Counted from the first letter of the stretch, positions 13,921-44,394 are shown. The stretch: DNA of 64,000 nucleotides from Candidatus Rokuibacteriota bacterium (GCA_016209385.1 JACQWB010000136.1:5880-69879); one strand, 5' to 3'. The notes: generated by a model not told the origin, from the sequence alone. Numbers and translations: made by a program.

Positions 13921-14005
13921 GGACAATCGGAGGGGGCCTCGACGGCCCCCTCCGAGGCCTCCCCCAGGAATGGGTTGCGCGGGCGAAGCCCGCGCTCGAA
14001 GGGCT
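13921..14005 (+). repeat. Copy A of a dispersed hairpin-rich intergenic repeat (short form).
   Basis: GACAATCG-GAGGGGGCC-TCGAC-GGCCCCCTCC-GAGGCCTCCCCCAGGAATGG-GTTGCGCGGGCGAAGCCCGCGCTCGAAGGGC. It contains two perfect stem-loops. Confidence 0.85.
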
Positions 14006-14021
14006 TCACTTCGAGGCGCTC

Positions 14022-14714
14022 CTATCGGGCCGTGAAGAAGAGTATGCCCCGGTCGTCGCCGCCGAGGGTCAAATCGGTGGGTGCGGTCTCGAGCACGCCG
14101 TTGGGGCCCGCCGAGAGGATCCACCCCTTGGCGTTGGGGACGATCGGGGACCCGCTCGCCTCCATCGCCCCCACGCTGATGATATAGTTGTTCCCCCAGG
14201 GATCGGCGTGGAGCCGCGCGACGTACGCGCCCCTCCAGATCACCGTGCCGGTCGATGAGTAGTCGGTGTTGATGCCGGCTATAATTCCATCGGCGTTGGG
14301 GTTGTTTACGACAAGGTGGTTGAACGTATTGTTCCTCGCGGGGGTCGGCTCCTGGTTGAGCGCGAAGTTCCATGCGCCGGTGGCGTCCGTCGGATCGGGA
14401 GACGTGACGCTCGCCGGCACGCCGGAGCTCTCGCCCACCCGCAGGAACTTGAGGTTGTTGTTGTCGCCGGGCCCGGTGCCATTGATCGGGTCACAGTCGG
14501 CGGTGTTGCACGTCGGGTAGTGCCGCATGTCCCTCAAGAACTGGCTCAAGGCGGTCGCCAGCTCCGCCACGTCCACGTCCGCCTGCGTGAGGCGCGCATC
14601 ATCGAGCAGGTCGATCGCGAGCGGCAAGAAGATGGACGCGAGGATCCCCACGACCGCCAGAACGAAGACCATCTCCATCAGCGTGAACCCACCCTGGTCC
14701 CTCATTCGGTTCAT
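14022..14714 (-). CDS. Prepilin-type N-terminal cleavage/methylation domain protein (large type IV pilin / pseudopilin-like).
   Basis: N-terminus RDQGGFTLMEMVFVLAVVGILA is the GFTLxE class-III signal motif. 230 aa. Confidence 0.75.
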   Translation of the reverse strand: MNRMRDQGGFTLMEMVFVLAVVGILASIFLPLAIDLLDDARLTQADVDVAELATALSQFLRDMRHYPTCNTADCDPINGTGPGDNNNLKFLRVGESSGVPASVTSPDPTDATGAWNFALNQEPTPARNNTFNHLVVNNPNADGIIAGINTDYSSTGTVIWRGAYVARLHADPWGNNYIISVGAMEASGSPIVPNAKGWILSAGPNGVLETAPTDLTLGGDDRGILFFTAR

Positions 14715-14747
14715 CTTCTGTCCCTCCGCGCTCGAGTGCCGCCCTGG

Positions 14748-16163: not shown

Positions 16164-16450
16164 GGCACCGCTCTCTCCCAGCGTCGTCACACCTACTCCT
16201 AGCCTTGTCACCCCATGAATAAACTCTGAGCCCCGCGGCATGAATCCGGTCAATCCCTCAGCCGAGGACGAGAAAAACCCTGACGGGGGGAGCAGGTGTT
16301 CGCTGCTGCCGGCTCGGGGGTTTCGCGTATTCCCGGCCGTCGTCCAAGCGGCGAGCCTGAGCGTTCTGACTTGCCTTTAATTTCGGGGGCTTCGCCCCTC
16401 GCTGGCAGGCCTCGGCCGCGCCGCGGCTTCAGGGATTCTCCGGAGCATGG

Positions 16451-16470
16451 AATCAGGTATTTACCTGATT
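16451..16470. promoter_or_regulatory. Perfect 9-bp inverted repeat with a 2-bp spacer (AATCAGGTA-TT-TACCTGATT) in the divergent HK / rsbR intergenic region.
   Basis: AT-rich palindrome in an otherwise ~70% GC region. Its half-site matches the GGAATCRGGTG motif seen upstream of other operons. Confidence 0.5.
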
Positions 16471-16518
16471 TCGCACGTCGCGCAGCTCGCCTAGGTTCAC
16501 CTCATGCTGCACTGCTGC

Positions 16519-16644
16519 GAGGTTCGAGCCGAGGGGCGTCGGCCATGCCGGAGGCAGGCCCGTCACGAGGCGAGGCCCAATGAGGTTCGAGCCGAGGGGC
16601 GTCGGCCATGCCGCAGGCAGGCCCGTCACGAGGCGAGGCCCAAT
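16519..16644 (+). repeat. Tandem direct repeat, 2 x 63 bp, one mismatch. It is homologous to the insertion module found in the long variants of the dispersed repeat.
   Basis: GAGGTTCGAGCCGAGGGGCGTCGGCCATGCC[G/C]GAGGCAGGCCCGTCACGAGGCGAGGCCCAAT occurs twice head-to-tail. Confidence 0.9.
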
Positions 16645-17078: not shown

Positions 17079-17990
17079 ATGGCTGACACTCGAATGAGCT
17101 CGACCCCGGTTATCAGTCCGCCCGCTCGAGACGAATCCACCACGGTGCTCCTCCGCGAGCTGGTGGCGCACCTTCGGCAGAGCCGCACCCAGCTCCGCGA
17201 GGAATGGGCGCGGCGCATCACCGAGGCCAAGTTGCTGACGGCGATGACCCCGGAGGAGATCTTCGCCGAGGCCACGGCCGTGTACGACAACTACCTCGAG
17301 GCCCTGGAGACTGGATCGATCGAGGCCCTGGAAACCTACGCCCGCAACCTGTCAGAGCGGATCATTCCGCGAGGGGTCGAGACGCACGAGGTCGTGGGTA
17401 TCGTGCTCCTGCTCCGCGACGTGCTCGCCCGGTCGCTGTTCGCCAAGTACCAGCAAGACTTCCATCAGCTCAACCGCATCCTGGACGCCTACGAGCCTGC
17501 GGCCAACCGGATCGCCAACACGGTGGCCGTGGGCTTCGTCCAGGAGCGGGAGCGGGTCATCCGCCAGCAGCAGGAGGCGATCCGTGAGCTGTCCACTCCG
17601 GTGCTGCCGGTTCGGGAGCGGCTGCTGGTCCTCCCGGTTATCGGTATCATCGACCCCCAGCGCGCCAGGCAGCTGACGGAGCAGCTCCTCCGCGGCATCC
17701 GGATCAACCGCGCGAAGGTGGTGGTCATGGACATCACGGGCGTGCCGGCCATGGACGCCACGGTGGCCAACCACCTGGTGCAGACGGTGGAGGCCTCGCG
17801 GCTCCTGGGGGCCACTGTCATCGTCACCGGCCTGTCGCCCGAAATCGCCCAGACGCTGGTCAACATCGGCGTGGACCTGGGCAAGATGAACACGGTGGGC
17901 GACCTGCAGGGCGGCATCGAGGAGGCCGAGCGGCTGTTGGGTTACAAGGTCATCCCGATCACGGTTGAGGCGCCGGTAGCGACCTCATAG
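17079..17990 (+). CDS. rsbR: RsbR-like stressosome sensor protein (N-terminal non-haem globin-like sensory domain + C-terminal STAS domain).
   Basis: STAS region VLPVIGIIDPQRARQLTEQLL...VVVMDITGVPAMDATVANHL. AAGGAGGA Shine-Dalgarno sequence 8 nt upstream of ATG 17079. Confidence 0.8.
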   Translation: MADTRMSSTPVISPPARDESTTVLLRELVAHLRQSRTQLREEWARRITEAKLLTAMTPEEIFAEATAVYDNYLEALETGSIEALETYARNLSERIIPRGVETHEVVGIVLLLRDVLARSLFAKYQQDFHQLNRILDAYEPAANRIANTVAVGFVQERERVIRQQQEAIRELSTPVLPVRERLLVLPVIGIIDPQRARQLTEQLLRGIRINRAKVVVMDITGVPAMDATVANHLVQTVEASRLLGATVIVTGLSPEIAQTLVNIGVDLGKMNTVGDLQGGIEEAERLLGYKVIPITVEAPVATS

Positions 17991-18002
17991 CGCGAGGGGC
18001 CC

Positions 18003-18374: not shown

Positions 18375-18389
18375 GCGGGTCAGCGCACC

Positions 18390-19402: not shown

Positions 19403-20700
19403 AGGACGCCGTGCAGGCGCTCGCGGAAGAGTATACGGCGGCGTTGAAGGAGTACCTGGCCGGCCGGGAGGAAGCGCTTCTGCAGCGCGCCTACGAACTC
19501 GGACGCAAAGCGCTCGCCGGCGGGTTGGGCGTGGTGGAAATGGTCACGCTCCACCGGGAGGCCATGGTGAACGTCTCGCCTGCCGCGCTCGATCAAGTCG
19601 CGGAGGCTGTGAGCGCGGCGGGGAACTTCCTGGCGGAGAGCCTGTCGCCCTTCGAGATGACGCACCGCGGGTTCCGCGAAGCGAATGCCGCGCTGCAGGT
19701 GAGCGAGGCGCGCTATCGCGAGCTGTTCGAGAACGCCAACGACATCATCTTCACCACGGATCTCGAGGGGAACTTCACCTCGATCAATCGGGCCGGCGAG
19801 CAACTCAGCGGCTACCAGCGCGACGAGACGGCTTCGATGAGCTTCGCGGCGGTCATCGCACCCGAGGACCTCGAGCGGGCGTGGACGATGCTCCAGCGGA
19901 AGCTCACGGGCCAGGCGGAACGCACCAGTTACGAGTTAGAGATCCTTACGAAGGACGGGCGCCGTGTCCCGCTCGAAGTCAGTACCCGGCTGATCTACCA
20001 CGAGGGGAAGCCCGCCGGGATCCAGGGCATTGCCCGCGATGTGACCGAGCGCAAGCGGGCCGAGCAGGCGGTGCGCCGGCTGAACGAGGTGCTGGAGGAG
20101 GAAACGAGACGGCTCGCCCATGCGCTCCACGACGAGGCGGGGCAGCTCCTGGTCTCCGTGTACCTCGCGCTGGAAGAGATCGGACGCGAGCTGCCCGCTC
20201 GGGCCCGCGGGCGTCTCCAGGAGGTGACGGCGTTGCTCGACCAGATCGAGGAGCAACTGCGGAGGCTCTCCCACGAGCTCCGTCCCACGATTCTGGACGA
20301 CCTGGGGCTCGTGCCTGCGGTCGAATTCCTGGCAGGAAGGGTCGCCAAGCGGAGTGGACTCCGGATCGGCGTCGAGGGCTCGACGGGGGGGCGGCTGCCA
20401 CCGTTGATGGAGACCGCCCTGTACCGGAGCGTGCAGGAGGCCCTGGCCAACGTGGCGAGACACGCTCAGGCCACCCGCGTGAGGGTCCACCTCCGGCGGG
20501 AGGCCCGCGCGATCCGGTGTTCCGTCCGGGATGACGGTGTCGGCTTCGACGTGGGGACCGTCCTGGCGCGACGGGGCGACCGCGGCCTGGGGTTGGTCGG
20601 GATTCGGGAGCGGGCCGGCGCGTTAGGGGGCACGCTCGAGGTCATTTCCGCCCCCGGCCGGGGAACCGAGCTGCTCATCACGATTCCCCTGGGGACCTGA
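19399..20700 (+). CDS. Sensor histidine kinase with an N-terminal RsbU_N (RsbT-binding) domain, a PAS domain, a HisKA_3 (NarL-type) dimerisation domain and HATPase_c.
   Basis: N-terminal ~90 aa resemble the RsbU N-terminal domain. PAS region FENANDIIFTTDLEGNFTSINRA. H-box LAHALHDEAGQLL. G-box DRGLGLVGIRERA. ATGA overlap with rsbX. Confidence 0.8.
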   Translation: MKDAVQALAEEYTAALKEYLAGREEALLQRAYELGRKALAGGLGVVEMVTLHREAMVNVSPAALDQVAEAVSAAGNFLAESLSPFEMTHRGFREANAALQVSEARYRELFENANDIIFTTDLEGNFTSINRAGEQLSGYQRDETASMSFAAVIAPEDLERAWTMLQRKLTGQAERTSYELEILTKDGRRVPLEVSTRLIYHEGKPAGIQGIARDVTERKRAEQAVRRLNEVLEEETRRLAHALHDEAGQLLVSVYLALEEIGRELPARARGRLQEVTALLDQIEEQLRRLSHELRPTILDDLGLVPAVEFLAGRVAKRSGLRIGVEGSTGGRLPPLMETALYRSVQEALANVARHAQATRVRVHLRREARAIRCSVRDDGVGFDVGTVLARRGDRGLGLVGIRERAGALGGTLEVISAPGRGTELLITIPLGT

Positions 20701-20702
20701 CG

Positions 20703-21335
20703 ATGCCACTTCGGATCCTCTTGGCCGACGATCATCAGATCGTCCGTCAGGGGTTGAAAGCCATCCTCGAGCGGGAGGGGTTCGGCATCGCCGGCGAGGC
20801 GGCGGACGGCCACGAGGCAGTCCGGCTGGCCCGGGAGGTGTCCCCCGATGTGGCCGTCCTCGATCTCGCGATGCCGCTGCTGAACGGGCTGGGCGCAGCG
20901 CGCGAAATCCACCCGGCTTCCCCCCGGACGCGAACGATCCTGCTGACCATGCATACCGAGGACCAGTACATCCTGGAGGCCCTCCGGGCCGGATTCAAGG
21001 GGATCGTCTTAAAGAGTCAGGCCGCCGCGGACCTGGTCCAGGCGATCCGGGAGGTTTCCCGGGGAGGGATCTACCTGAGCCCCGGCGTCTCCCGCGCGGT
21101 GGTCGAGGCGTATCGGGCCAAGACCGAGCTTGTCGCCGATCCCCTCACTCCCCGGGAGCAAGAAGTCCTCCAGCTGATCGCCGAAGGAAAGACGACGAAG
21201 GAGATCGCGACCCTGCTCGGGGTCAGCGTCAAGACCGCGGAGTCCCACCGGACCCGGCTCATGGACAAGCTCGACATCCACGAGACCGCCAGCCTGGTCC
21301 GCTACGCCATCCGTCGGGGCCTGGTCGAGCCCTGA
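20703..21335 (+). CDS. NarL/FixJ-family response regulator (REC + LuxR-type HTH).
   Basis: ILLADDHQIVRQG...VAVLDLAMP...LTPREQEVLQLIAEGKTTKEIA. Confidence 0.85.
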   Translation: MPLRILLADDHQIVRQGLKAILEREGFGIAGEAADGHEAVRLAREVSPDVAVLDLAMPLLNGLGAAREIHPASPRTRTILLTMHTEDQYILEALRAGFKGIVLKSQAAADLVQAIREVSRGGIYLSPGVSRAVVEAYRAKTELVADPLTPREQEVLQLIAEGKTTKEIATLLGVSVKTAESHRTRLMDKLDIHETASLVRYAIRRGLVEP

Positions 21336-21552
21336 CCCCGGCGGCCCCCGCGGGCCGCCCCCTTTCCCGTTCAGGGGTTCCCCTCCCTTGTAATCCAGAG
21401 TTCACCGGATTGCCCTGCCCTGCGTGGAAAGGCCACACTTTCTTCGTACTTTACTATGTTGAGCACGGTTGATCGTCAGGCACGGTGGAAGCCGTCGGAG
21501 GGCTGGGTGCCCCACAAGGACGGGGATCGTCGTCTGCAGGGGAGACTTCGAG

Positions 21553-22185
21553 TTGCCGCTACGCATCCTCTTAGCTGACGACCACCTGATTGTTCGCCAG
21601 GGCGTCAAGGCGGTCCTCGAGCGCGAGGGGTTCGAGGTGGTCGCCGAGGCGGGAGACGGCCACGAGGCGGTCCAGATGGCCCGGGAGCATCATCCCGACG
21701 TGGCAGTCCTGGATCTTGCCATGCCGCTGCTGAACGGCCTGGATGCGGCGCGCGAGATTCCCCCCGTCTCGCCGCGGACGCGAACGATCCTGCTGACGGT
21801 GTACGCCGACGATCCGTACGTCGTGAAGGCGCTGCAGGCGGGGATCAGCGGCTACGTGTTGAAGACCCAGGCTGCGGCGGACCTCGTGCGGGCGATCCAG
21901 GAGGTCTCCCGGGGAGCGATCTACCTGAGCCCCGGCGTCTCCCGCACGGTCGTCGAGGCCTATCTGGCTAAGAGCGACCTCCCCCCCGACCCGCTGACCC
22001 CGCGGGAACGCGAGGTCCTACAGCTGATCGCCCAGGGGAAGCGGACGAAGGAGATCGCCCAGCTCTTGGGAATAGGGGTGAAGACCGCCGAGTCTCACCG
22101 GGCGCGGGTCATGGAGAAGCTGAACATTCACGAGACCGCCAGCCTGGTCCGCTACGCCGTCCGCCACGGCCTGATTCAGCCGTGA
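21553..22185 (+). CDS. NarL/FixJ-family response regulator, tandem paralogue of 20703-21335 (~70% identical). TTG start inferred by alignment with the paralogue.
   Basis: LPLRILLADDHLIVRQGVKAVLEREGF aligns with the paralogue's N-terminus. GGGGAG Shine-Dalgarno sequence upstream of TTG 21553. Confidence 0.8.
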   Translation: MPLRILLADDHLIVRQGVKAVLEREGFEVVAEAGDGHEAVQMAREHHPDVAVLDLAMPLLNGLDAAREIPPVSPRTRTILLTVYADDPYVVKALQAGISGYVLKTQAAADLVRAIQEVSRGAIYLSPGVSRTVVEAYLAKSDLPPDPLTPREREVLQLIAQGKRTKEIAQLLGIGVKTAESHRARVMEKLNIHETASLVRYAVRHGLIQP

Positions 22186-22502: not shown

Positions 22503-22570
22503 GTCCCCTCACCCGGGCGCAGCGCCCTCCTGAAGCGGAGCCGCGTTTCTAGATAGGCCGTGATGATTAG

Positions 22571-22737
22571 GAGCGTGTCGGAGTAATGCCCTTCGAGCGC
22601 GGGCTTCGCCCGTGCAATTGACTCGGGCCTCGCGCGGCGGGTGGCCTGCCTCGCGGCATGGCCGAACCCGCCACGCTCGAACCACCATTCCTGGGGGAGG
22701 CCTCGGAGGGGGCCGTCGAGGCCCCCTTCGATTGTTC
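22571..22737 (-). repeat. Copy B of the dispersed repeat. Long form with a ~70-bp internal module. Reverse orientation.
   Basis: The reverse complement matches copy A end-to-end. It has an insertion homologous to the 63-bp tandem unit at 16519-16644. Confidence 0.85.
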
Positions 22738-23040
22738 TAGCTGCAGCCCGGCCTTCAGCCGCCCTCTCCCGGCCCGCCATCCTCAGAGATCTTTCAGCGC
22801 AATTCCCGATCGAACTGCGTTAGGTTCGGGGATTTTCCGCCCCCCGATTGGAGCGTTCGACGGATTGTAAGCCTGCTGGCTCGCCGCCTAGCCTTTACGG
22901 AGGGCGGAATTTCGAGGCTGCCGACAACTCGGGAAGCACAAACAGGAGGGGCGGAAGATGTAAAGAACGGAGCGGACGAACCATTCAAGTCCACAGCTAG
23001 CAGGGAAAAATAGCCGGTAAACGGCCAGAGGAGAAACGCT

Positions 23041-25267: not shown

Positions 25268-26398
25268 ATGGCGATGCGGGCGGGAGGGGCCGCGCTGGCG
25301 GTCGTGCTCCTGGGAGCGGTGCTCGTCCCGGGCCTCGCCGGCGCTCAGCCTGGCGTCTTCGTGACTCCCTCCTTCTCCATCGCCGAGGTGTACGACGACA
25401 ACCTGTTCTTCACTCCCTCCCGACGCGAGAAGGACCTGATCTCGCGCTTCAGCCCGGGGATTCAGGCCGGCTACCAGTCCGTCCCGCTCACGCTCCTGGG
25501 TCGCTACACGTTCGACGCGGAGATCTATCCCGACCACCCGGAGCTGGACGACGCCCAGGTGCGCCAGGAAGCCGGGATCGAGTTCCGGTCCCGGCCAAAC
25601 CGGACGCTGACGCTGTCGTTCGACGGGGCATTCCTGGAAACGCAAACGCCCGGCCAGCTCAACGTGGCGACCGGCATTCTGGTGGGGCGGGTGCGCGCCC
25701 AGCGCCTCTCCGCCAAGCCCGGCGTCGCCTACGAGTTCGACCCCCTCACGGCCGGGGCTGCGGAGTACACGTTGACGGAGGACGAGCTGTCGGGGGGTGT
25801 CACGATCCTGACCCATGTCGGCGACCTTCGCCTCGACCGGCGGATCACGCCGCTGGACACGGGGAGCGTGGGCTATACCCTCCGCGAGTTCGACTTCGAC
25901 CCGGGCGGCACCACCACCTCCCATGCGGTCACGCTCGGCTGGACGCGCCAGCTCACGCCGCTGACGAGCCTCACGCTTCGCGGCGGACCCCGCTTCAGCG
26001 AGGGGTCGGTGGACCCGGAAGTCTCGGCCTCGATCCGCCATCGGCTCAGGCTCGGGGAGGTCTCGTTCACGTACTCGCGCAGCCAGACCACGGTCATCGG
26101 GCGGGCGGGCAGCGTGGACAACGAGGCCTTCATCGCCACCGCGGTGCTCGAGCCCCTGCCGTCGCTGGAGGTACGCGCCGCGCCGAGCCTCCTTCGGACC
26201 TTCGACGCCGACCGGGAAGCCAGGGTGTACGCGCTGGATCTGACGGCCGAATACAAGATCACGGCGTGGCTTTCCCTCGAAGGCGCCTACGAGTTCAGTT
26301 TCCAGGAGGGCGGCGTCAACGCGATACGCGACGAGGAGATCTCCCACAATATCATCCTGCTGCGGCTGACCGTCAAGCAGCCCTACCGCATTTACTAA
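25268..26398 (+). CDS. Outer-membrane beta-barrel protein of the EPS locus (EpsL-like).
   Basis: Signal peptide. Alternating amphipathic beta-strands throughout. C-terminus ends with the aromatic residue RIY. Confidence 0.65.
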   Translation: MAMRAGGAALAVVLLGAVLVPGLAGAQPGVFVTPSFSIAEVYDDNLFFTPSRREKDLISRFSPGIQAGYQSVPLTLLGRYTFDAEIYPDHPELDDAQVRQEAGIEFRSRPNRTLTLSFDGAFLETQTPGQLNVATGILVGRVRAQRLSAKPGVAYEFDPLTAGAAEYTLTEDELSGGVTILTHVGDLRLDRRITPLDTGSVGYTLREFDFDPGGTTTSHAVTLGWTRQLTPLTSLTLRGGPRFSEGSVDPEVSASIRHRLRLGEVSFTYSRSQTTVIGRAGSVDNEAFIATAVLEPLPSLEVRAAPSLLRTFDADREARVYALDLTAEYKITAWLSLEGAYEFSFQEGGVNAIRDEEISHNIILLRLTVKQPYRIY

Positions 26399-26400
26399 GA

Positions 26401-26498
26401 CAGTCGGAGGGGGCCTCGACGGCCCCCTCCGAAGCCTCCCCCACGAATCGGTTGCGCGGGCGAAGCCCGCGCTCGAAGGGCATTGACTCCGACACGCT
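26401..26498 (+). repeat. Copy C of the dispersed repeat (short form).
   Basis: CAGTCGGAGGGGGCCTCGACGGCCCCCTCCGAAGCCTCCCCCACGAATCGGTTGCGCGGGCGAAGCCCGCGCTCGAAGGGCATTGACTCCGACACGCT. Confidence 0.85.
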
Positions 26499-26618
26499 AC
26501 TAGGCGGTCGGTTTCCGCCCCCGTTCCTCGAGGGCCGCGCCTGTCGGCTTGAGCGGCAGGCGGCCTTCGCCCCACCCCGATTCTTCAAGCGACACGCCTC
26601 CCGATCCGGAGGAACGCC

Positions 26619-27224
26619 ATGGTGATTGCGCGGCTCGTTTGGCGACTCGTGATCCCGGCGCTCATCGTCGGCGCGACCGCGCTGGCCGTGGGACACGGCC
26701 GCGCGTGCGGTGAGGAAGGGGCCGCCGCCGTCGAGCCCGGCGATTACCGGATCGGGCCGGAGGACGTGCTCGACATCGCGGTCTGGAACAACACGGCGGT
26801 CAGCCGAACGGTCCCCGTGCGGCCGGACGGCAAGATCTCGCTCCCGCTCGTGAACGACATCCGGGCGGCGGGCCTGACGCCGATGCAGCTCCGGGATGTC
26901 CTGATGAAGAAGCTCGTGGAGTACATGCCTCAGCCCGAAGTGTCGGTCATCGTGCGGGAGGTGCGCAGCTTCAAGGTATCGGTTCTCGGCGAGGTGAAGA
27001 CGCCGGGTCGGTACGAGCTGCGGAGCCGGAGCACCGTGCTGGATGTCCTTGCCATGGCCGGCCCGTTCAGCGAGTTCGCCGCCCGCTCGCGGATCATCAT
27101 CCTCCGCCACGACGGCAGCAGCAGCATCAAGCGGATCCCGTTCAACTACAACACGGCCATCTCGGGGCACGTGAACGGGGAGAGCTTCTTCCTCCAGCCC
27201 GGGGACATCATCCTGGTGCCGTAG
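26619..27224 (+). CDS. Periplasmic polysaccharide export protein (Wza-like Poly_export + SLBB; EpsE-like).
   Basis: DYRIGPEDVLDIAVWNN...VRPDGKISLPLVNDIRAAGLTPMQL matches the polysaccharide-export family. Confidence 0.8.
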   Translation: MVIARLVWRLVIPALIVGATALAVGHGRACGEEGAAAVEPGDYRIGPEDVLDIAVWNNTAVSRTVPVRPDGKISLPLVNDIRAAGLTPMQLRDVLMKKLVEYMPQPEVSVIVREVRSFKVSVLGEVKTPGRYELRSRSTVLDVLAMAGPFSEFAARSRIIILRHDGSSSIKRIPFNYNTAISGHVNGESFFLQPGDIILVP

Positions 27225-27248
27225 CCGGCACCCTCGGGGGGGAACGAC

Positions 27249-27830
27249 ATGACGACTCGCGCGCGACTCGGTGCATTGCTGGTGATCCTGGCGGTGGGCG
27301 GGCCGGGTCTGGTCTCGGCCCAGCAACCCGGCAAGGCTCAGGAGCCGGGTGAATTCCGGATCGGGCCCGGGGACGTCCTGGAGATCTCCGTGTGGAACAA
27401 CGCGGCGCTCAGCCGAACGGTCCCCGTGCGGCCGGACGGCAAGATCTCCCTCCCGGTCCTGAACGACGTGCAGGCGGCGGGCCTCACCACGGTGGAGCTG
27501 CGGAACATCCTGAAGAAAAGCCTGGCCGCCTACGTCGCCGCTCCGGAGGTCTCCGTGATTGTCCGGGAGGTGCACAGCTTCGCGGTCTCGGTCGTTGGCG
27601 AGGTGAAGACACCCGGCCGCTACGAGCTCACGACTCGGAGCACGGTGCTGGATGCCCTTGCCATCGCCGGCCCGTTCAGCGACTTTGCCGCCCGCTCGCG
27701 GATCGTGATCCTGCGCAACGAGGGCGGGAAGACCAAGCGGATCCCGTTCAACTACAACAAGGCCGTCTTGGCGGACGGGCAGCAGGAGAACTTCTTCCTC
27801 CGGCCCGGCGACGTCATCGTGGTGCCGTAG
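27249..27830 (+). CDS. Second polysaccharide export protein, tandem paralogue of 26619-27224.
   Basis: Same motifs (EFRIGPGDVLEISVWNN...VRPDGKISLPVLNDVQAAGL), ~70-75% identity to its neighbour. Confidence 0.8.
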   Translation: MTTRARLGALLVILAVGGPGLVSAQQPGKAQEPGEFRIGPGDVLEISVWNNAALSRTVPVRPDGKISLPVLNDVQAAGLTTVELRNILKKSLAAYVAAPEVSVIVREVHSFAVSVVGEVKTPGRYELTTRSTVLDALAIAGPFSDFAARSRIVILRNEGGKTKRIPFNYNKAVLADGQQENFFLRPGDVIVVP

Positions 27831-27849
27831 GCGGTCCGGGGGGGGACGC

Positions 27850-33414: not shown

Positions 33415-33525
33415 GAATGCTCGAAGGGTCCACTTGGGGACAGCCGAAGCGCTTCGGGCGCGGGCTTGGCCCGCGCAATCTCGGGGGGAGGTTCGGAAGG
33501 GGGGCGGAGCCCCCCTCCGAGGATC
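33415..33525 (-). repeat. Copy D of the dispersed repeat (degenerate).
   Basis: Retains both hairpins: GCGCGGGCTTGGCCCGCGC and GGAAGGGGGGCGGAGCCCCCCTCC. Confidence 0.55.
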
Positions 33526-33526
33526 G

Positions 33527-33784
33527 ATGATGGTTCGCAAGGAGAAACTCCGCGGCACGGGTCCGGCGTACCGGCAGGGGTATCCCAAGATGGCTCCCTG
33601 TCTCGGGTGGTGCAACCGGCTCCACATGTCCCAGGGGCCCGGTGACCGCTTCTGCGAGCTGTGCCGGAGGCGAAAGGAGAAGATCGCCGGGACATGCGGG
33701 GACCTCTCCACCGCAGGGGAACCGGAGGTGCGTGATGCTTCTCGTGCTGAGGCGAAGACGACGGGAGCTGCTCCGCGAGATTAG
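33527..33784 (+). CDS. Hypothetical small zinc-ribbon protein (85 aa).
   Basis: ATGATG start preceded by a GAGGA Shine-Dalgarno sequence. CxxxC-(13)-CxxC motif (CLGWC...FCELC). High GC3 over the first 65 codons. Confidence 0.3.
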   Translation: MMVRKEKLRGTGPAYRQGYPKMAPCLGWCNRLHMSQGPGDRFCELCRRRKEKIAGTCGDLSTAGEPEVRDASRAEAKTTGAAPRD

Positions 33785-36577: not shown

Positions 36578-37695
36578 AGGGTGAGGCCTTGAGCGCGCCG
36601 CACTACGTGGTCGAGTACCACGAGCACACCGGCCTCTACCGGTGGCGGGTCGCCCCCGGGGAGCGGCTTTTGCTCCCGACGGGGCGACCTGCCCGCCGAG
36701 CTCCCAACGTCGTCGCGCTGGGAGGCGGAACCGGGCTCCCCGTCGTCCTGCAAGGCCTGAAGCAAGCCCTCCTTCCCCGCCGATGGCCGGGGGAATCGCC
36801 GCGGGATCAGGACCGGGACCGTCTCACCGCCATCGTGACGGTTGCGGACGACGGGGGAAGCTCGGGCCGCCTCCGACAGGCGTACCGGGTGCTCGCCCCC
36901 GGCGATATCCGCAACTGCCTCCTCGCCCTCGCGGAAGGCGATTCCACGGTGGGGGCGATCTTCGGCTTCCGCTTCAATGGCGGGAACGAGCTGGCGGGCC
37001 ACACGCTCGGCAATCTCATCCTGACGGCCCTGAGCCAGCTCGAGAGCGACTTTCTCAAGGCGGTCGAGCGGGCGAGCGACATCCTCGCGATCCGGGGGCG
37101 GGTCCTGCCGTCCACACTGGACGACGTCACCCTCCTGGCCGAGTTCGCCGACGGGAGCCGAGTGGAAGGCGAATCACGGATCGCGGCGGTCCGTCGCCCC
37201 ATCCGGCGAGTCCGTCTTCAGCCGGAAACCGCCCGGGCGCTGCCCCAGGCCCTGGACGCCATCGCTGCGGCGGACCTGATCGTGATCGGGCCGGGGAGCC
37301 TCTACACGAGCCTTTTGCCAACCCTGCTGGTGAAAGAGCTGGCGGAGGCCATCGCTCGCTCTCGGGCCCGGGTGGTGCTGGTGATGAACCTCATGACCGA
37401 GCCGGGAGACACCGACGGCTACACCGCCGCGGACTTCCTCCAGGCGCTACGCCGTCATACCCCCCAGGTGCCCATTCACGCGGTGCTCGTCAACAGCGCC
37501 AGGATCCCCGGGGAGCTGAGCGAGCGGTACGCGGCGGAGGGCGCCGCCCCGATGCCCGTGGAGGTGGAAGTCCTCAAGGCGGTCGGGTGCCGGCCGGTGG
37601 AGCGGGATCTCCTTGGCGGGGGTCCGCTGGTTCGGCACGATCCGCAGAAGCTCGCGCGGGCGGTGCTGGAGCTGGCGGCTGGGGTGCCGGAATGA
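36574..37695 (+). CDS. YvcK/CofD-family protein (UPF0052; gluconeogenesis factor-like).
   Basis: VVALGGGTGL...TVADDGGSSGRLR core motifs. Confidence 0.75.
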   Translation: MKGEALSAPHYVVEYHEHTGLYRWRVAPGERLLLPTGRPARRAPNVVALGGGTGLPVVLQGLKQALLPRRWPGESPRDQDRDRLTAIVTVADDGGSSGRLRQAYRVLAPGDIRNCLLALAEGDSTVGAIFGFRFNGGNELAGHTLGNLILTALSQLESDFLKAVERASDILAIRGRVLPSTLDDVTLLAEFADGSRVEGESRIAAVRRPIRRVRLQPETARALPQALDAIAAADLIVIGPGSLYTSLLPTLLVKELAEAIARSRARVVLVMNLMTEPGDTDGYTAADFLQALRRHTPQVPIHAVLVNSARIPGELSERYAAEGAAPMPVEVEVLKAVGCRPVERDLLGGGPLVRHDPQKLARAVLELAAGVPE

Positions 37696-39002
37696 ATCAG
37701 GCGGAGCTTGCGGAGCTGATCCGAAATCACACCGCACGCCTGACCGTCGTCGGCCAGGGGTACGTGGGTCTCCCGCTGGCGGTCGAGTTCGCCCGTGCGG
37801 GATTTCCCGTGAGCGGCCTCGACACGGATGCGCACCGGGTCACCGCTCTCAACGCGGGCGGGCTGCACAGCCCGGACGTGGACGTGAAAGACCTGGTGGC
37901 GCTGCTCCGCGACGGTCGGTACGCGGCGACGTCGGACGTCTCCGTCCTCGACCGGAGCGACGTCGTGGTGATCTGCGTGCCGACGCCGCTCCGGAAGTCG
38001 AAGGACCCGGACATCTCCTTCGTCGTCGCGGCGGCAGAGCAGGTCGCCGCCAGGTCCAGGCCTGGCCAGCTCGTTGTTCTGGAATCCACGACCTACCCGG
38101 GGACCACCGAGGAGCTGCTCCGCCCCATGTTCGAGGCCCGGGGAGCCAAGGTCGGGGTGGACGTGTTCCTGGCCTTCTCGCCCGAGCGAATCGACCCGGG
38201 GAACCGGACCTTCAGGCTCCGCGACATTCCGAAGGTGGTGGGGGGCGTCACCCCGGCCTGCGGCCGCATGGCGGCCTTGCTCTACCGGCAGATCAGCGTC
38301 ACGGTCATCGAGGTCTCGAGCCCCAAGGTGGCCGAGCTTGCCAAGCTCTACGAGAACGTCTTCAGGAACGTCAACATCGCGCTGGCGAACGAGTTCGCCC
38401 TCATGTGCCGCCGCCTGGGCGTGAGTACGCGCGAGGTGATTGACGCGGCCGCCACGAAGCCCTTCGGCTTTCTCGCCTTCTATCCGGGCCCGGGCATCGG
38501 GGGCCATTGCATCGGCGTGGACCCGTTCTACCTTGCGTGGAAGATCCGCCTGAACGGGTACGAGGCCCGCTTCATCCACCTCGCCGACGAAATCAACCGC
38601 GCCATGCCCGCCTACGTGGTGGAGCTGGTGGCCGACGCCTTGAACCGGCGGCGGCGCTGCCTGAACGGCGCCAGGATCCTCGTGCTCGGGGTCGCGTACA
38701 AGCGCGGGGTCGGGGACATCCGCGAGTCTCCGGCTCTGGAGATCCTCGCGCGGCTCCGCGAAAAAGGGGCGCAGGCTTCGTACGCGGACCCCTACGTCCC
38801 CGCGGTCACGCTCGGCGGGGTCGTCCTCAAGGCCGTGGAGCCCACGGATCAGGTCCTCGCGTCGGCCGACTGTGTGCTGATCCTCACCGACCACCGCGAG
38901 TTCGATTACCGACGGGTCGTGGAGATGGCGTCCCTTGTCGTGGACACGCGGAGTGCCACCCGGGGGATCCCCGCGCCGGACGGGCGGGTCGTCACGTTGT
39001 AG
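37692..39002 (+). CDS. UDP-N-acetyl-D-hexosamine (ManNAc/GlcNAc) 6-dehydrogenase (WecC/WbpA/TviB family).
   Basis: Rossmann motif LTVVGQGYVGLPLA. Catalytic Cys motif GPGIGGHCIGVDP. ATGA overlap with the upstream gene. Confidence 0.85.
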   Translation: MNQAELAELIRNHTARLTVVGQGYVGLPLAVEFARAGFPVSGLDTDAHRVTALNAGGLHSPDVDVKDLVALLRDGRYAATSDVSVLDRSDVVVICVPTPLRKSKDPDISFVVAAAEQVAARSRPGQLVVLESTTYPGTTEELLRPMFEARGAKVGVDVFLAFSPERIDPGNRTFRLRDIPKVVGGVTPACGRMAALLYRQISVTVIEVSSPKVAELAKLYENVFRNVNIALANEFALMCRRLGVSTREVIDAAATKPFGFLAFYPGPGIGGHCIGVDPFYLAWKIRLNGYEARFIHLADEINRAMPAYVVELVADALNRRRRCLNGARILVLGVAYKRGVGDIRESPALEILARLREKGAQASYADPYVPAVTLGGVVLKAVEPTDQVLASADCVLILTDHREFDYRRVVEMASLVVDTRSATRGIPAPDGRVVTL

Positions 39003-39020
39003 ATGAACCGCGAATCCCAG

Positions 39021-39230
39021 GAGCGTGTCCGAGTAATGCCGCCGGGGAAATTCCATCGCGTCCGAGCGCGGGCTCTGCCCGCGCAATTGACTCCGGGCTC
39101 GTGCGGCGGGTGGCCTGCCTCGCGGCATGGCCGAACCCGCCACGCTCGAACCACCATTCCTGGGGGAGGCCTCGGAGGGGGCCCGGGTACCCACGCCGGA
39201 GGCGTGGGTGTCCCCCTCCGATGGGGCTAG
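39021..39230 (-). repeat. Copy E of the dispersed repeat. Long form with extra inserted segments and an enlarged terminal hairpin.
   Basis: GAGCGTGTCCGAGTAATGCC...GGCATGGCCGAACCCGCCACGCTCGAACCACCATTCCTGGGGGAGGCCTCGGAGGGGGCC...CCCCCTCC. Confidence 0.8.
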
Positions 39231-39231
39231 G

Positions 39232-40566
39232 ATGAACCCGAATTCCCCTCCGGCAGGGTGGCGGTCCGGTTTGGTGCAGGAACGCCGTGATCGGTCGGTG
39301 GCTCCTGCCGTGGCCGCTCCCAACGTCCCTGATGGCTCCGTGCCGTTCTGGGGCCTCATGACGTTCACCTTCATTTTGTTGCTCGCGCCCCAGAGCCTCG
39401 TTCCGGCCCTCGCCCCCTTACGCATCGCGCTGGTCACGGCCGGCCTGGCCATCGCGGCGCATCTGGGTGGTCGCTTCGTCCGCGGGCGGCCGTTCATGAG
39501 CCTCACCCGGGAGGTGTGGATCACCGCGTGCCTGGTCGGATGGGCGATCGTCACACTCCCGCTCTCCTACTGGCCGGGAGGGAGCGTGTCGCTTCTTCTC
39601 GGCCAGTACTTCAAAGCGCTCGCGGTCTTCTGGCTGATCGGCAACGTCGTGACCAGCCTTCCGAGGGTCCGGCTGCTGACGCAGGGGCTGAGCCTGATGG
39701 CGGTGCCCCTGGCCGTCTCGGGGGTCAGCAACTATCTCTCGGGTGAGTTCATCGCCGGGGGAGTGCACAGGCGCATCCACGGCTTCGACGCGCCGCTGAC
39801 CGGCAATCCAAACGATCTGGCGCTGATGCTCAGCCTGATCCTCCCGTTGAGCGTGGCGCTCGTGCTGGCAACCCGGAGGCCCCTGCTTCGTGTCCTGCTG
39901 CTCGGCAGCGTGGTGCTGAGCGTGGTCGGGGTGATCGTGACGTTCTCCCGGGGAGGGTTTCTGGCCCTGTCGACGATCGTCGCCATGTATCTGTGGAAGC
40001 TCCGGGGGCGGCGGGAATGGGGCTGGGCCCTGGCGGTGCCCCTCGTCGTGCTGGCGGGTCTGCCGTTCCTCCCGGAGGGGTACGTCGGACGCCTGGAGAC
40101 GATTACCGATATTCAGTCTGACCCGACCGGATCCGCACAGGCGCGGTGGACCGACTTGAACGCCGCGACGAGCTTCGTGCTCGCAAATCCGATCGTCGGA
40201 GCCGGGGTAGGCATGAACGCGCTGGCCCTGAACGAGCTGAGAGGGGCGACGTGGAGGGAAGTCCATAACGTGTATCTCGAGTACGCGGTGGACCTGGGCC
40301 TTCCCGGGCTCGTGCTGTTCCTGGTCCTCGTGTTCGGCTGCCTCAGGTGCGCGACGTTCGTTCAGCGGCGCTCCGCCGGAGTGCCGGCGCTCCGGGAACT
40401 GTTCTACCTCGCGGAAGGAATCCAGATCAGTCTCGCCGCGTTTGCCGTTGCCGCTCTCTTCTATCCGGCCGCCTACCACTTCTACTTCTATTACCTCGGC
40501 GGCCTGGCGGTGGCGGTCAAGGCGGTGTACGAGGCGGGCGCCCACCGGACCGGCCTGGACCGGTAA
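39232..40566 (+). CDS. O-antigen ligase / Wzy-like polymerase-family membrane protein.
   Basis: ~11 TM segments with a large periplasmic loop (Wzy_C-like). The track ORF starts inside repeat copy E; start taken at ATG 39232. Confidence 0.7.
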   Translation: MNPNSPPAGWRSGLVQERRDRSVAPAVAAPNVPDGSVPFWGLMTFTFILLLAPQSLVPALAPLRIALVTAGLAIAAHLGGRFVRGRPFMSLTREVWITACLVGWAIVTLPLSYWPGGSVSLLLGQYFKALAVFWLIGNVVTSLPRVRLLTQGLSLMAVPLAVSGVSNYLSGEFIAGGVHRRIHGFDAPLTGNPNDLALMLSLILPLSVALVLATRRPLLRVLLLGSVVLSVVGVIVTFSRGGFLALSTIVAMYLWKLRGRREWGWALAVPLVVLAGLPFLPEGYVGRLETITDIQSDPTGSAQARWTDLNAATSFVLANPIVGAGVGMNALALNELRGATWREVHNVYLEYAVDLGLPGLVLFLVLVFGCLRCATFVQRRSAGVPALRELFYLAEGIQISLAAFAVAALFYPAAYHFYFYYLGGLAVAVKAVYEAGAHRTGLDR

Positions 40567-40623
40567 TCGCTCCAGCGACCGGGAGTGGGATCGGTATCCG
40601 TGGAGCATCCAGGGAGGCGGGCC

Positions 40624-41871: not shown

Positions 41872-43154
41872 AGGCGGCGGCAGCGGTCGTCGTGCCCGGG
41901 GATAGATCGCCCGCGACTCCCGCGTGGCGTGTGGAAACCATCTCCGATTTCAACTCCTTCCTGGATGCGGAGGCGGCCTGGAATGACGTTGTCGAAGCCG
42001 CCGGGATCGATCACCCGTTTCTGAGCCACGAGTGGGTGCGCACGTGGTGGGAGTCCTTCGGCGCCGGCAAGGAGCTTCACATTCTCGTCGTGAAGGCCGG
42101 CGGGGAGCCGGTCGCGATCGCTCCGTTGATGCGGAGCGTCGGGTGGATGTATGGCGTGCGGGTGCGCCGGCTCCAGTTCATCTCGAACGACCACACCCCC
42201 CGCTGCGACTTCATCATCGCGCGTCGAGCAGGCGACGCGTACCGGGCGATCTGGCGCGCGCTGTCGAGGGAGCAGGGCCTCTGGGACGTGCTCGAGCTGA
42301 ATCAGCTACAGGCCGGCTCGCGCAGTCTGGACGAGCTTTCGAGGCTGGCGGCCCGGGACGGATTCCGCATCGGTCTCTGGCGCTCGGCCGAGTCTCCTTA
42401 CGTGCCCCTGGTCGGAACGTGGGAGAGCTACCTGAAGGGGCTCCGCAGCCATCACCGGGCCAATCTGCGCAACCGGCTCAAACGGCTGAGCCGGCTCGGA
42501 CAGGTGGAGCTCGAGGTCGTTGCGCCGGATGAGCGACTGGGAAGCGCCCTGGAAGCGGGGCTGCGACTCGAGGCCGCCGCGTGGAAGGGAGAAGCCGGGA
42601 CCGCCATTCGCTGCCACCCCGCGGTCCACGCGTTTTACACAAGGCTTGCGGAGCGAGCGGCGCGGCGCGGCTGGCTGCGCCTGTCCTTCATGGCCATTGG
42701 TGACCGGCGGATCGCATTCAGTTACTCCCTGTGCTACAGGAACAGACTCTATCTGCTCAAGATCGGCTACGACCCGGAGTATGCCCAGTATTCGCCGTTC
42801 AATCTGCTTTGCGACGGGGTCCTGCGCAAGGCGTTCGCGGAGGGGTTGGCCGAATGTGATTTCATGGGGACGAAGGACAAGTGGAAACTGGAATGGACAA
42901 GGGAAACGCGGCCGCACTACTGGCTGTTTCTGTTCCCCAACGCCATGGGCCCGCGGCTCATCCACTGGGCGAAGTTCCAGCTGGTCCCGAGACTTCAGCG
43001 GCACCGGCTTTACCTGTCGCTTCGCGATACCGTGTTGCGCGCAAGAGGCAGGACCAACGGACTGACGCCTCCAGACCGAAGAACCTCCGGCGACGGCGCC
43101 GGTAGCCAGGTCGCGACCGCGCGGCCGCTGATCGGCGGGGGGGAAGCCCCATAA
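41868..43154 (+). CDS. FemAB-like GNAT-fold protein (Acetyltransf_6 / BioF2-like; PEP-CTERM-locus-associated subfamily).
   Basis: LSHEWVRTWWESFG...LLKIGYDPEYAQYSPFNLL is typical of the FemAB / CelD-like family. Confidence 0.75.
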   Translation: MKAAAAVVVPGDRSPATPAWRVETISDFNSFLDAEAAWNDVVEAAGIDHPFLSHEWVRTWWESFGAGKELHILVVKAGGEPVAIAPLMRSVGWMYGVRVRRLQFISNDHTPRCDFIIARRAGDAYRAIWRALSREQGLWDVLELNQLQAGSRSLDELSRLAARDGFRIGLWRSAESPYVPLVGTWESYLKGLRSHHRANLRNRLKRLSRLGQVELEVVAPDERLGSALEAGLRLEAAAWKGEAGTAIRCHPAVHAFYTRLAERAARRGWLRLSFMAIGDRRIAFSYSLCYRNRLYLLKIGYDPEYAQYSPFNLLCDGVLRKAFAEGLAECDFMGTKDKWKLEWTRETRPHYWLFLFPNAMGPRLIHWAKFQLVPRLQRHRLYLSLRDTVLRARGRTNGLTPPDRRTSGDGAGSQVATARPLIGGGEAP

Positions 43155-43156
43155 AG

Positions 43157-44296
43157 ATGTACGTGCCGGCATGGCCGGGCCTCGACCCAGCCTACCTCGT
43201 TCGGTGGCGCACCGCAGAACACGCTCCGTTCCCGCTGAACGCGCCGAAGCGCGCGTATTTCTATCGGGCGCGGAATGCGATTTACCACCTGTTCCGTGCC
43301 CTGGGCGGCCAGAACGGGAAGACCGTTCTCGTGCCCGACTACCACAGTGGCAACGAAGTCTGGGCGATCCGCGCCGCCGGGGCCGCCATACGCTATTACC
43401 GCGTGGGTCGGAACCTGGAACCGGATCTCGAGTACTTGAGACGCGTGTGCAGATCCGCCGACCCGGGCGCGTTGTTCATCATTCACTATCTGGGCTGGCC
43501 TCAACCGGTGAAGGAACTCCTGGCCTTGTGTCAGGAGCGGGGAATGCTCCTGATCGAGGATTGTGCGCTTTCGCTCCTCAGCGAGACCCGTGGGCGACCC
43601 CTCGGGACGTTCGGCCAGTACGCGGTGTTCTGCCTGTACAAGAGCTTGCCGCTGCCGCACGGCGGGCTGCTCGTCCAGAACGATCACGTGCTGGAGGAGC
43701 TGACCAGGCTCGAGCTGAAGCCATGCGGTGTGGCGTCGGTCGCGGGCAGAACCGCGGAGTTGATGCTGGAGTGGCTCCGGGCGCGGTCGGATTCTCCCGC
43801 GCGGATGCTGTTTTCCCTCAAGCGAGGGACCGGGCGGGTGCTGACTGCGCTCGGCGTCGACCGATTGCCGGTCGGTGAGATCGGGTTCGATCTGTCGAGC
43901 GTGAACGTCGGGATCTCGCCCCTGAATCTCGGCCTGTTGCGGCGGTTTGACTATGAGGCCATACGCCGGAGACGTCGGGAGAATTTCCGGCGGCTGCGCG
44001 AGAAGCTGGTTGGCAAAGCCACGCTGTTGGACAAAGAGCTTGAGGAGGGCGTGTGTCCCCTGTTCTTTCCGATTCTGGTCCCGGACAAACGGTTCGCCGC
44101 CCGGGCGTTACGCGAGCGCGGAATCGCCGCGGTCGAGTTCTGGAACTACGGTGATCCCGGGGCGGAGGGGAAGGAGTTCGCGGATGCCCGGTTCCTTCGC
44201 GCCCATGTTCTCGAGCTGCCGATCCATCAGGACATCACGCCGGCTCAGGTCAGTTACATGGCGGATCAGGTGGTGCGCCTGAAGCTGTATTTCTAG
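43157..44296 (+). CDS. DegT/DnrJ/EryC1/StrS-family aminotransferase-like protein (PLP fold).
   Basis: LLIEDCALSL...GQYAVFCLYKSLPLPHGGLL parallels the DegT motif around the PLP lysine. Confidence 0.55.
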   Translation: MYVPAWPGLDPAYLVRWRTAEHAPFPLNAPKRAYFYRARNAIYHLFRALGGQNGKTVLVPDYHSGNEVWAIRAAGAAIRYYRVGRNLEPDLEYLRRVCRSADPGALFIIHYLGWPQPVKELLALCQERGMLLIEDCALSLLSETRGRPLGTFGQYAVFCLYKSLPLPHGGLLVQNDHVLEELTRLELKPCGVASVAGRTAELMLEWLRARSDSPARMLFSLKRGTGRVLTALGVDRLPVGEIGFDLSSVNVGISPLNLGLLRRFDYEAIRRRRRENFRRLREKLVGKATLLDKELEEGVCPLFFPILVPDKRFAARALRERGIAAVEFWNYGDPGAEGKEFADARFLRAHVLELPIHQDITPAQVSYMADQVVRLKLYF

Positions 44297-44394
44297 GACA
44301 ATCGGAGGGGGCCTGGACGGCCCCCTCCGAGGCCTCCCCCAGGAATCTGTTGCGCGGGCTAAGCCCGCGCTCGAAGGGCATACTCCGACAGGCT
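44297..44394 (+). repeat. Copy F of the dispersed repeat (short form).
   Basis: GACAATCGGAGGGGGCCTGGACGGCCCCCTCCGAGGCCTCCCCCAGGAATCTGTTGCGCGGGCTAAGCCCGCGCTCGAAGGGCATACTCCGACAGGCT. Confidence 0.85.

Follow-up and report, generated by a model that had tools for sequence, protein, structure and literature searches.

The 64,000-nucleotide stretch analysed here, one strand of a contig from Candidatus Rokuibacteriota bacterium (GCA_016209385.1 JACQWB010000136.1:5880-69879; "the window" in what follows), contains six copies, three forward and three reverse, of a short repeat with two different GC-rich hairpins, named HP1 and HP2. Together with their relatives in other genomes, these copies probably represent a family of small composite palindromic repeats, non-coding, non-autonomous and specific to their lineage, belonging to the broad class of the repetitive extragenic palindromic sequences (REPs), the bacterial interspersed mosaic elements (BIMEs), the palindrome-associated transposable elements (PATEs) and the miniature inverted-repeat transposable elements (MITEs). 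The family would have spread in Rokubacteria (Methylomirabilota in GTDB, metagenome-assembled genomes, or MAGs, of Rokubacteriales type) by a DNA-level mechanism recognising hairpins. We know of no report on the repeat content of Rokubacteria, which have large genomes and abound, uncultured, in soil and groundwater.

The copies were checked by direct reading and by a repeat search, in which both the direct and the inverted families were recovered. The original prediction, made from the sequence of the window alone, had located six copies, with a consensus and in both orientations; all this is borne out by direct reading and by a covariance model, R1. The model, which combines the 12-bp stem of HP1 with the 8-bp stem of HP2, was derived from 80 copies and applied to the window with filters off. 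It recovers exactly the six copies as true members, with forward matches at 13917-14003, 26394-26480 and 44292-44378 (95-97 bits, E ~1e-18) and reverse matches at 33450-33530 (60 bits), 22658-22741 (57 bits) and 39142-39231 (37 bits). The one further, weak match (51178-51260, 18.7 bits) was rejected as a false positive, lying inside a glycosyltransferase-type coding open reading frame (ORF). The HP1 pattern GGAGGGGGCC-N5-GGCCCCCTCC, with up to 3 mismatches, is matched 4 times in the window, against 0.02 matches expected from dinucleotide shuffles. RNA folding agrees with the presence of two stem-loops per copy: both hairpins form in every window copy, with z-scores between -3.2 and -4.6 against shuffles.

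Genes were called by a codon-usage model, based on codon log-odds, and all six copies fall between the genes so defined, as had been claimed. The flanking genes make up a polysaccharide locus (Poly_export, GlmS-type, Bac_transf, UDP-glucose dehydrogenase, Wzy_C and DegT). The original prediction had dismissed as artefacts the ORFs that read through the repeat; this is correct for the window, where the gene model omits them. In a related genome a genuine map gene does read through a copy (see below).

The organisation of the unit was established on 126 oriented copies, from the window and from other genomes, containing the 22-nt core GGCCCCCTCCGARGCCTCCCCC. Units are about 80 to 210 bases long and non-coding, and their parts follow a fixed order: (C)TAG, a spacer, HP1, a C-rich linker, optional hairpin modules, HP2, the sequence TCGAA and an optional right end. 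The spacer, 4-5 nt long, A/T-rich and specific to the subfamily, does not vary within a genome; it reads GGACAA in the window, and ATTG and GACA in two MAGs. HP1 spans 29 nt, its 12-bp stem being formed by TCGGAGGGGGCC and GGCCCCCTCCGA around a 5-nt loop, mostly TCGAC. The unpaired linker consists of GARGCCTCCCCC and 5-13 variable bases, and is kept also in copies that were not ascertained by it. HP2 spans 19 nt, with an 8-bp stem in which GCGNNGGC and GCCNNCGC are separated by RAA, and is followed by TCGAA. The right end, (T)TACTCCGACACGCTCCTAG, terminating in ...TCCGACACGCTCCTAG, is found in only about 15-30% of the copies. HP1 and HP2 are unlike in sequence, and stand in direct order in more than 90% of the copies.

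Optional modules are inserted at two places, one of about 70 nt (module X) between linker and HP2, another between HP2 and the right end. Module X accounts for the length of two reverse window copies, copy 4 (22.6 kb) and copy 5 (39 kb), and was also seen in several loci of another MAG. A subfamily, HP1b, in which TCGGAGGGGGGC-TYC-GCCCCCCTTCCGA is followed by ACCTCCCCCC, occurs in many genomes, joined to the same HP2; HP1b is a compensated variant of HP1. The window copy at 33415-33525, at first taken for a degenerate one, is a regular member of this second subfamily. Whole units are also arranged as inverted pairs, which are a minority (L022 and L034, where L-numbers denote the loci or contigs compared with the window), as direct tandems (L019, L039) or as clusters of HP1b and HP1a units (L050, L100, L054, L057). 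These inverted, tandem and clustered units are mosaics in the manner of BIMEs.

A scan for the exact core, with each prokaryotic species represented by one genome, found it in at least 120 stretches from at least 44 species-level assemblies. Among the matches listed, which come from 44 assemblies, 36 assemblies are labelled Rokubacteria or Methylomirabilota, 4 "uncultured bacterium", and 4 bear other labels; a single MAG, MNEF01, holds at least 20 of the listed core blocks. A profile search of 829 kb of loci returned 159 elements, 39 of them beyond the 120 ascertained, or about one further copy per 21 kb, while the window has one copy per 10.7 kb. At these densities a genome of several megabases would hold a few hundred copies, in line with the hundreds predicted. 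The repeat is dispersed, as expected, and a local duplication is ruled out by the scan of the genome collection. Short-read contigs from the window's strain (L121 and L122 at their ends, L203 at its start; runs SRR12113390 and SRR12113401), which carry the DegT gene of the window and its neighbour, stop within HP1 on either side of copy 3 (44318-44330); this fits a high-copy repeat, since assemblers break contigs at such repeats.

No copy of the family was found in 80 metagenome loci of another lineage, homologous to the window Poly_export gene (530 kb; 63-75% amino-acid identity to Poly_export, 63.7% GC), while the positive control on the window worked, and the repeat as a feature of such exopolysaccharide loci is thereby ruled out. 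Plasmids and viral contigs gave no match to the repeat. In the window, Rfam 15 gave 0 matches at gathering thresholds and only chance-level ones (E 0.37 or worse) at relaxed thresholds, which rules out a known RNA family at both levels, and literature searches on Rokubacteria and Methylomirabilota returned no description of such a repeat. The claim that the family had not been described before is sustained by the searches of Rfam, the literature, plasmids and viral contigs.

Four contigs with odd labels also carry the repeat: L030 (Verrucomicrobiia), L105 (Acidimicrobiia), L043 and L074. Over 5.7 kb, L030 shares 89% identity with two Methylomirabilota contigs; L105, with about 80% identity, is syntenic with four Rokubacteria loci; given this synteny, both labels are probably binning errors. 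One divergent relative of the repeat was observed in the control lineage, at 1722-1832 of L134. It has the same layout (stop codon, G/C hairpin, C-rich linker, GAA-loop hairpin) and a near-identical right end, TACTCCGACAGGCTCTTAG, with different hairpin sequences. The layout, shared by different hairpins, is thus older than the HP1 sequence, and suggests a wider, older super-family.

Pairing within the stems was analysed on 121 non-redundant copies, some of which had been found independently of the core. Standard pairs fill 97.8% of the pair cells, against 92.9% in shuffles and at most 55% with slid partners. Changes on both sides of a pair were seen at nine pairs, in 80 cells against 19 in shuffles, counts that are inflated by the shared descent of subfamilies. 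Two HP2 positions swap between CG and GC 16 and 42 times, with about 1 unpaired case, and the 8-bp stem of HP2 is perfect in 95 of 106 copies. The HP2 variants, GCGCCGGC (53), GCGCGGGC (28), GCGGCGGC (12), GCGAGGGC (1) and GCGCTGGC (1), are all fully compensated, coexist in single genomes and combine with both HP1 types; compensated HP2 swaps also occur between species at two orthologous sites (L010/L022 and L050/L057). Compensatory changes thus uphold the conserved secondary structure, the point on which covariation had been proposed as a check. The pairing data are compatible with a constraint on RNA or on DNA hairpins and do not tell the two apart; on the transcribed strand G-U and A-C mismatches number 15 and 9, a difference which is not significant.

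As to the position of the repeat relative to genes, among classified copies 42 are in sense and 36 in antisense orientation between co-directional genes, 20 lie between convergent genes and 4 between divergent ones. For genes whose 3' end faces the left end, the median gap from the stop codon is 4 nt; the stop codon starts 9 nt upstream of GGAGG in most cases, and HP1 starts 6-7 nt after it in more than half of the copies. The stops of these genes are TAG in 38 cases, TAA in 14 and TGA in 11. TAG and TAA together make up 52 of 63 stops (83%), compared with 260 of 651 (40%) for the remaining genes in these loci (p = 5e-11 by Fisher's test); TA(G/A) is therefore part of the left terminus of the element or of its insertion target. 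Full-length copies have CTAG on both sides (16 listed), the right end being mostly CTAG, with GTAG in 2 of the 16. In antisense copies, the right-end CTA can act as the stop of the facing gene (e.g. window 14022-14024). By direct reading, no U-tract follows HP1 or HP2 on either strand: HP1 is followed by GAGGCC and HP2 by TCGAA, and on the reverse strands the hairpins are followed by GAUUG or AAUCC.

Some copies were observed next to tRNA genes. At an orthologous site in two species (L015, 272-356; L119, 2380-2430), a copy immediately follows the CCA with which one tRNA gene ends and precedes a second tRNA gene, one copy consisting of HP1 and HP2 and the other of HP1 only. In three further species (L032, L085, L105) a copy abuts the 5' end of another tRNA gene.

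Filled and empty sites were identified from pairs of syntenic loci. Between map and infA a copy is present in L020, while in L077 the site is empty and the two genes overlap by ATGA. In L020 (7460-7680, minus strand) the ORF of map, coding for methionine aminopeptidase, reads through the whole element, which lengthens it by about 30 codons, and meets infA at a TAATG junction. Between rpsK and rpsD the site is filled in L077, in sense orientation and directly after the TA of the stop codon, and empty in L020. In L101 two units lie between tuf and rpsJ, which are 377 nt apart, while in L068 the interval is 4 nt; the junction between ABC-ATPase genes of livG/F type holds an inverted pair in L022, and one unit plus a remnant in L010. 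Target-site duplications had been proposed as a further check: no duplication of TA or CTAG was found at the map-infA, rpsK-rpsD, tuf-rpsJ and ABC-ATPase junctions examined, and one site has an 18-nt duplication. There, in L010, the element lies between the two ABC-ATPase genes, flanked by the perfect direct repeat GCGCTCACGACAGCCACC (2480-2497 and 2629-2646); each repeat holds the GTGA stop/start overlap, so that both genes are intact. In the orthologous L022, just a 3-4 nt repeat is found at the same site. Exact-protein look-ups for near-identical strains gave no empty site; what they returned, if anything, was short contigs ending within the repeat.

At other sites between two and five species share a copy, their coding flanks being 69-90% identical. 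Orientation agrees in 20 of 21 pairs, and the median identity of the element is 82%, compared with 81% for the flanks. This occupancy in several species indicates that many insertions predate speciation.

Variation was also observed within the hairpin loops. A 28-nt mini-palindrome, CACCCACGCC-N4-GGCGTGGGTACCCGG, is found inside HP1 or HP2 loops only, in either orientation, at 39184-39211 of the window and in L021 (two), L024, L052, L056 and L106, all the non-window occurrences being in one MAG (JACQWA01). No occurrence outside the loops was found in 893 kb, and none in the 530-kb control; the mini-palindrome looks like a second-order element targeting hairpin loops. At three sites (L017, ~4062-4090; L049, ~978-1006; L084, ~3132-3160) the HP1 loop is reverse-complemented, reading GCCGA, GTCGA or GGTGA versus TCGAC or TCGGC; the hairpin alone is flipped, the rest of the unit keeping the same orientation.

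RAYT proteins recognise GTAG-tagged REPs, and the TnpA transposases of IS200/IS605 insertion sequences (ISs) recognise the subterminal hairpins of their own elements; TnpA inserts 3' of a tetranucleotide, without duplication. For the repeat described here, an enzyme recognising DNA hairpins together with a short flank, and encoded elsewhere in the genome, would mobilise the copies in trans, and insertion would occur next to a TA(G/A) target without regular target duplication, as is the case for HUH/Y1 enzymes such as RAYT and IS200/IS605 TnpA. A model of this type fits the layout of the unit (YTAG, hairpin...hairpin, CTAG), the missing duplication and the hairpin-centred variation seen as flipped loops and loop mini-palindromes. 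The non-coding nature of the element and the lack of a neighbouring transposase also fit trans-mobilisation.

Once inserted, a copy would be co-transcribed with the neighbouring genes, and its stable hairpins may act like E. coli REPs, as a barrier to 3'-exonucleases and as modulators of read-through and translation termination. Such an action would account for the presence of copies at gene ends, where they are tolerated, and for their exclusion from promoter regions. Liang, Rudd and Deutscher reportedly found in 2015 that REPs within ~15 nt of a stop codon lower the translation of the upstream gene; as a 12-bp GC hairpin follows the stop by 6-7 nt in more than half of the copies, a REP-type effect on translation could be widespread among them. 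By analogy, we infer a REP-like effect on the host: REPs are mostly located downstream of genes and transcribed (PMC3733652), and REP325 stabilises the upstream mRNA and attenuates read-through, or terminates (bioRxiv 10.64898/2026.03.23.713779).

A number of observations weigh against a hairpin-recognising mechanism, or against assignment to the known classes. A search of 1.42 Mb, in which each genome is represented by 8-kb blocks, revealed no RAYT, TnpA, TnpB or DDE transposase; this is weak evidence, as such genes are usually single-copy and the genomes covered are those of the core matches listed. A regular expression for the HUH...Y motif, run in six frames, detected no HUH/Y1 signature, and phmmer with E. 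coli RayT against the 12,404 ORFs of the same 1.42 Mb returned one noise match only. A Pfam scan of the genes next to HP1-only copies revealed no transposase, and neither orphan right ends nor a transposase between ends, as signs of an autonomous parent, were found in 893 kb. Close inverted pairs (L095, L081, L031, L070, L022) were considered as possible borders of a transposase, a candidate rejected since the genes between them are ABC transporters and other ordinary genes. The 3:3 distribution of the window copies on the strands shows no sign of the replication-strand bias of IS200/IS605-type elements (n=6), and most copies are without a right end. Filled and empty junctions come from species 75-85% identical and have no clean boundaries; shared sites are as conserved as the coding flanks, which fits a host function and an old selfish element alike. 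Each REPIN (a doublet of REPs) is made of two inverted copies of the same REP, while the two hairpins here are unrelated and directly ordered. Finally, two catalogued REP super-families are defined by an unpaired GTAG or CGTC tag at the palindrome end (PMC3733652). Here no GTAG or CGTC tag adjoins a stem; (C/T)TAG, 4-5 nt upstream, doubles as the host stop, and there is no CGTC end.

Other explanations were weighed on the same data. There is a small but real probability that the repeat is a classical MITE, derived by internal deletion from a DDE-transposase IS (IS630/Tc1-like with a TA target, or IS5-like with CTAG/YTAR) and mobilised in trans through its ends, with HP1 and HP2 as passengers. 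CTAG on both sides of full-length copies, the strong enrichment of TA-containing stops at the left end, ends that are fixed while internal modules vary, and a right end kept even in the divergent L134 relative, from another lineage, would all follow from this origin. So would the weak inverted repeat of the ends, CTAGGA-ca-TCGGA on the left and, reverse-complemented, CTAGGA-gccag-TCGGA on the right; this repeat, however, has only ~11 conserved bases and a length difference, its right part is limited to the minority of copies already mentioned, and CTAG at both ends may belong to the element itself. Moreover, no TA or CTAG duplication marks rpsK-rpsD and map-infA, one site having the 18-nt duplication instead, and the search for orphan ends, or for a transposase between ends, was negative. 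It is improbable, in turn, that the family is a host-selected cis-acting RNA module, not selfish, repeatedly recruited as a stabiliser of 3' untranslated regions or intercistronic segments, a processing site or a modulator of translation termination, in which the conserved SD-like (Shine-Dalgarno) GGAGG of HP1, paired to an anti-SD-like CCUCC, and the free CCUCCCCC would be functional RNA features. Sense copies (42) hardly exceed antisense ones (36), and the linker reads differently on each strand; copies sit beside tRNA genes and in unrelated operons, and truncated, mosaic and nested forms, with filled/empty polymorphism, are traits of selfish repeats. For these reasons the "structured non-coding RNA family" which the original prediction had offered as an alternative is not favoured. 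What speaks for the module is the compensation in both stems, the conservation of the unpaired C-rich linker, also in copies ascertained independently of it, the distance of HP1 from the stop, and the sites common to up to five species, with their constant orientation and a conservation close to that of the coding flanks; the excess of G-U over A-C is a weak trend in the same direction, in a wobble test that is not significant.

A very improbable explanation is that the copies are intrinsic (Rho-independent) terminators or independently transcribed small RNA genes. Strong GC-rich hairpins at gene 3' ends, and the frequency of convergent contexts (20 copies), are what one would expect of them, but neither hairpin is followed by a U-tract on either strand, there is no conserved promoter-like sequence, no orientation preference and no Rfam match, and copies are located within essential co-transcribed pairs (rpsK-rpsD, map-infA, tuf-rpsJ, ABC-transporter operons), where termination would be polar. 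A dedicated small RNA or an intrinsic terminator is accordingly unlikely. We regard as quite improbable a bolder interpretation, in which the repeat would be a stop-codon-coupled device, made of an extremely stable hairpin mimicking the SD/anti-SD pairing (GGAGG/CCUCC) and of the free CCUCCCCC tract, 6-7 nt past the stop. The device would spread by a hairpin-directed, single-strand DNA mechanism targeting TAG/TAA, would bring its own stop codon, could duplicate stop/start overlaps (as in L010) and would offer its loops as landing sites to the 28-nt mini-palindrome, constituting a new class of mobile elements; if true, translation termination and coupling would be rewired across the whole phylum.

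The six window copies are distributed as follows. Copy 1, a short form, occupies 13921-14026 on the plus strand, with HP1 at 13927-13955, the C-rich linker at 13956-13975, HP2 at 13977-13995 and a degenerate right end at ~14007-14024; it is antisense to the flanking minus-strand genes, and the CTA in which it terminates (14022-14024) provides gene 14022-14714, on the minus strand, with its TAG stop. Copies 2 and 3 are full-length short forms on the plus strand. Copy 2 (26396-26503; HP1 26404-26432, HP2 26454-26472, right end TCCGACACGCTACTAG at 26488-26503) begins at the TAA stop (26396-26398) of gene 25268-26398 and is in sense orientation between two plus-strand genes; copy 3 (44294-44399; HP1 44302-44330, HP2 44352-44370, right end TCCGACAGGCTTTTAG at 44384-44399) begins with the TAG (44294-44296) that stops the DegT-type aminotransferase gene (43157-44296), the next gene starting from 44409.

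The other three are on the minus strand. Copy 4, a long form (22567-22741), has its CTAG left end at 22737-22740, HP1 at 22703-22731, the linker at 22685-22702, the module X hairpin at ~22618-22684, HP2 at 22597-22615, with one A-C mismatch that is a G-U on the plus strand, and the right end at 22567-22584. Copy 5, the longest form (39017-39232), starts from the left-end CTAG (39227-39230) and continues with HP1 (39172-39221), in whose loop a mini-hairpin is nested (39184-39211), the linker, module X (39084-39159), HP2 (39066-39084), an extra insertion and the right end (39017-39034), 14 nt past the TAG stop of gene 37692-39002. Copy 6, of the HP1b subfamily (33415-33530), comprises HP1b at 33493-33520, which reads TCGGAAGGGGGGC-GGA-GCCCCCCTCCGA on the plus strand, with one bulge, the linker, HP2 at 33458-33476 and a small extra hairpin at 33430-33455. 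The six copies first listed are all present; a seventh, related site was not in that list. It consists of two tandem 63-nt module X-like units, 98% identical, at 16519-16644 on the plus strand, without HP1 or HP2, standing by itself in the 950 nt between two divergent genes, upstream of gene 17145-17990.

Two tandemly duplicated gene pairs adjoin repeat copies in the window, at 20691-21840 and 26733-27834, with 76-77% DNA identity. The first is formed by LuxR/response-regulator-like ORFs (20703-21335 and 21553-22185), the second by Poly_export-type genes (26619-27224 and 27276-27830).

A small repeat family is what specialists would expect in large GC-rich genomes. Four features of this one are unusual: the coupling with stop codons, the fixed two-hairpin architecture with its conserved single-stranded C-rich tract, a core that is identical in at least 44 species, and the mini-palindrome nested in loops. 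The repeat explains the fragmentation of short-read assemblies at gene ends in Rokubacteria, and its 22-nt core is a lineage marker able to flag mis-binned contigs. The REP/BIME phenomenon would be extended to a new phylum, without the canonical tag, and the two ordered hairpins may point to a different mobilising enzyme. A very stable hairpin falls within the ribosome footprint of hundreds of stops per genome and, if REP precedents hold, would tune the upstream genes genome-wide. Loop-nested mini-hairpins and flipped loops could provide a natural system for the study of hairpin-directed DNA transactions.

The likeness to REPs and BIMEs is manifold. Palindromes are short and GC-rich (29 nt for HP1 and 19 nt for HP2, compared with 20-40 nt for REPs), extragenic and present in high copy number; they are found mostly downstream of genes, are scarce between divergent genes and occur in both orientations. 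As in REPs, subfamilies differ by complementary stem residues, dimers and clusters are formed, copies are occasionally found within genes, and presence or absence varies between relatives (PMC3733652). Unlike REPs and BIMEs, the repeat has two different hairpins in a fixed order and a conserved single-stranded C-rich linker, no repeat-flanked RAYT gene (REPtron) was found in the 1.42 Mb, and the host belongs to an uncultured phylum outside the taxa of the catalogued tagged REPs (Enterobacteria, Pseudomonas, Stenotrophomonas and others). With the REPIN+RAYT systems of Bertels and Rainey the family shares its non-autonomous, vertically persistent palindromic nature and the long-term occupancy of orthologous sites.

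PATEs are hairpin-ended non-autonomous derivatives of IS200/IS605. The repeat resembles them in having subterminal hairpins without true terminal inverted repeats, YTAG as left flank and CTAG as right, and in the apparent lack of a regular target duplication; moderately abundant "double palindromic" repeats have also been described next to tyrosine transposase (TIRYT) genes (PMC3733652). It differs from both in that no TnpA, TnpB or TIRYT partner was found, in that no replication-strand bias is visible in the window and in the lack of a right end in most copies. Correia, RUP, ERIC and other bacterial MITEs, as well as the Rickettsia palindromic elements (RPEs), share with it a length of 100-200 nt, an intergenic location, co-transcription (presumed for this repeat) and TA-associated ends. 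Correia and RUP elements have clear terminal inverted repeats and TA duplications, whereas here the inverted repeat is weak and no TA duplication was seen. RPEs are found mainly in frame inside genes, whereas this repeat is almost always outside them, the copy read through within a protein (map, L020) being the point of resemblance. The family, absent from Rfam and from the searchable literature, is a previously undescribed relative of the REP/MITE-type small palindromic repeats.

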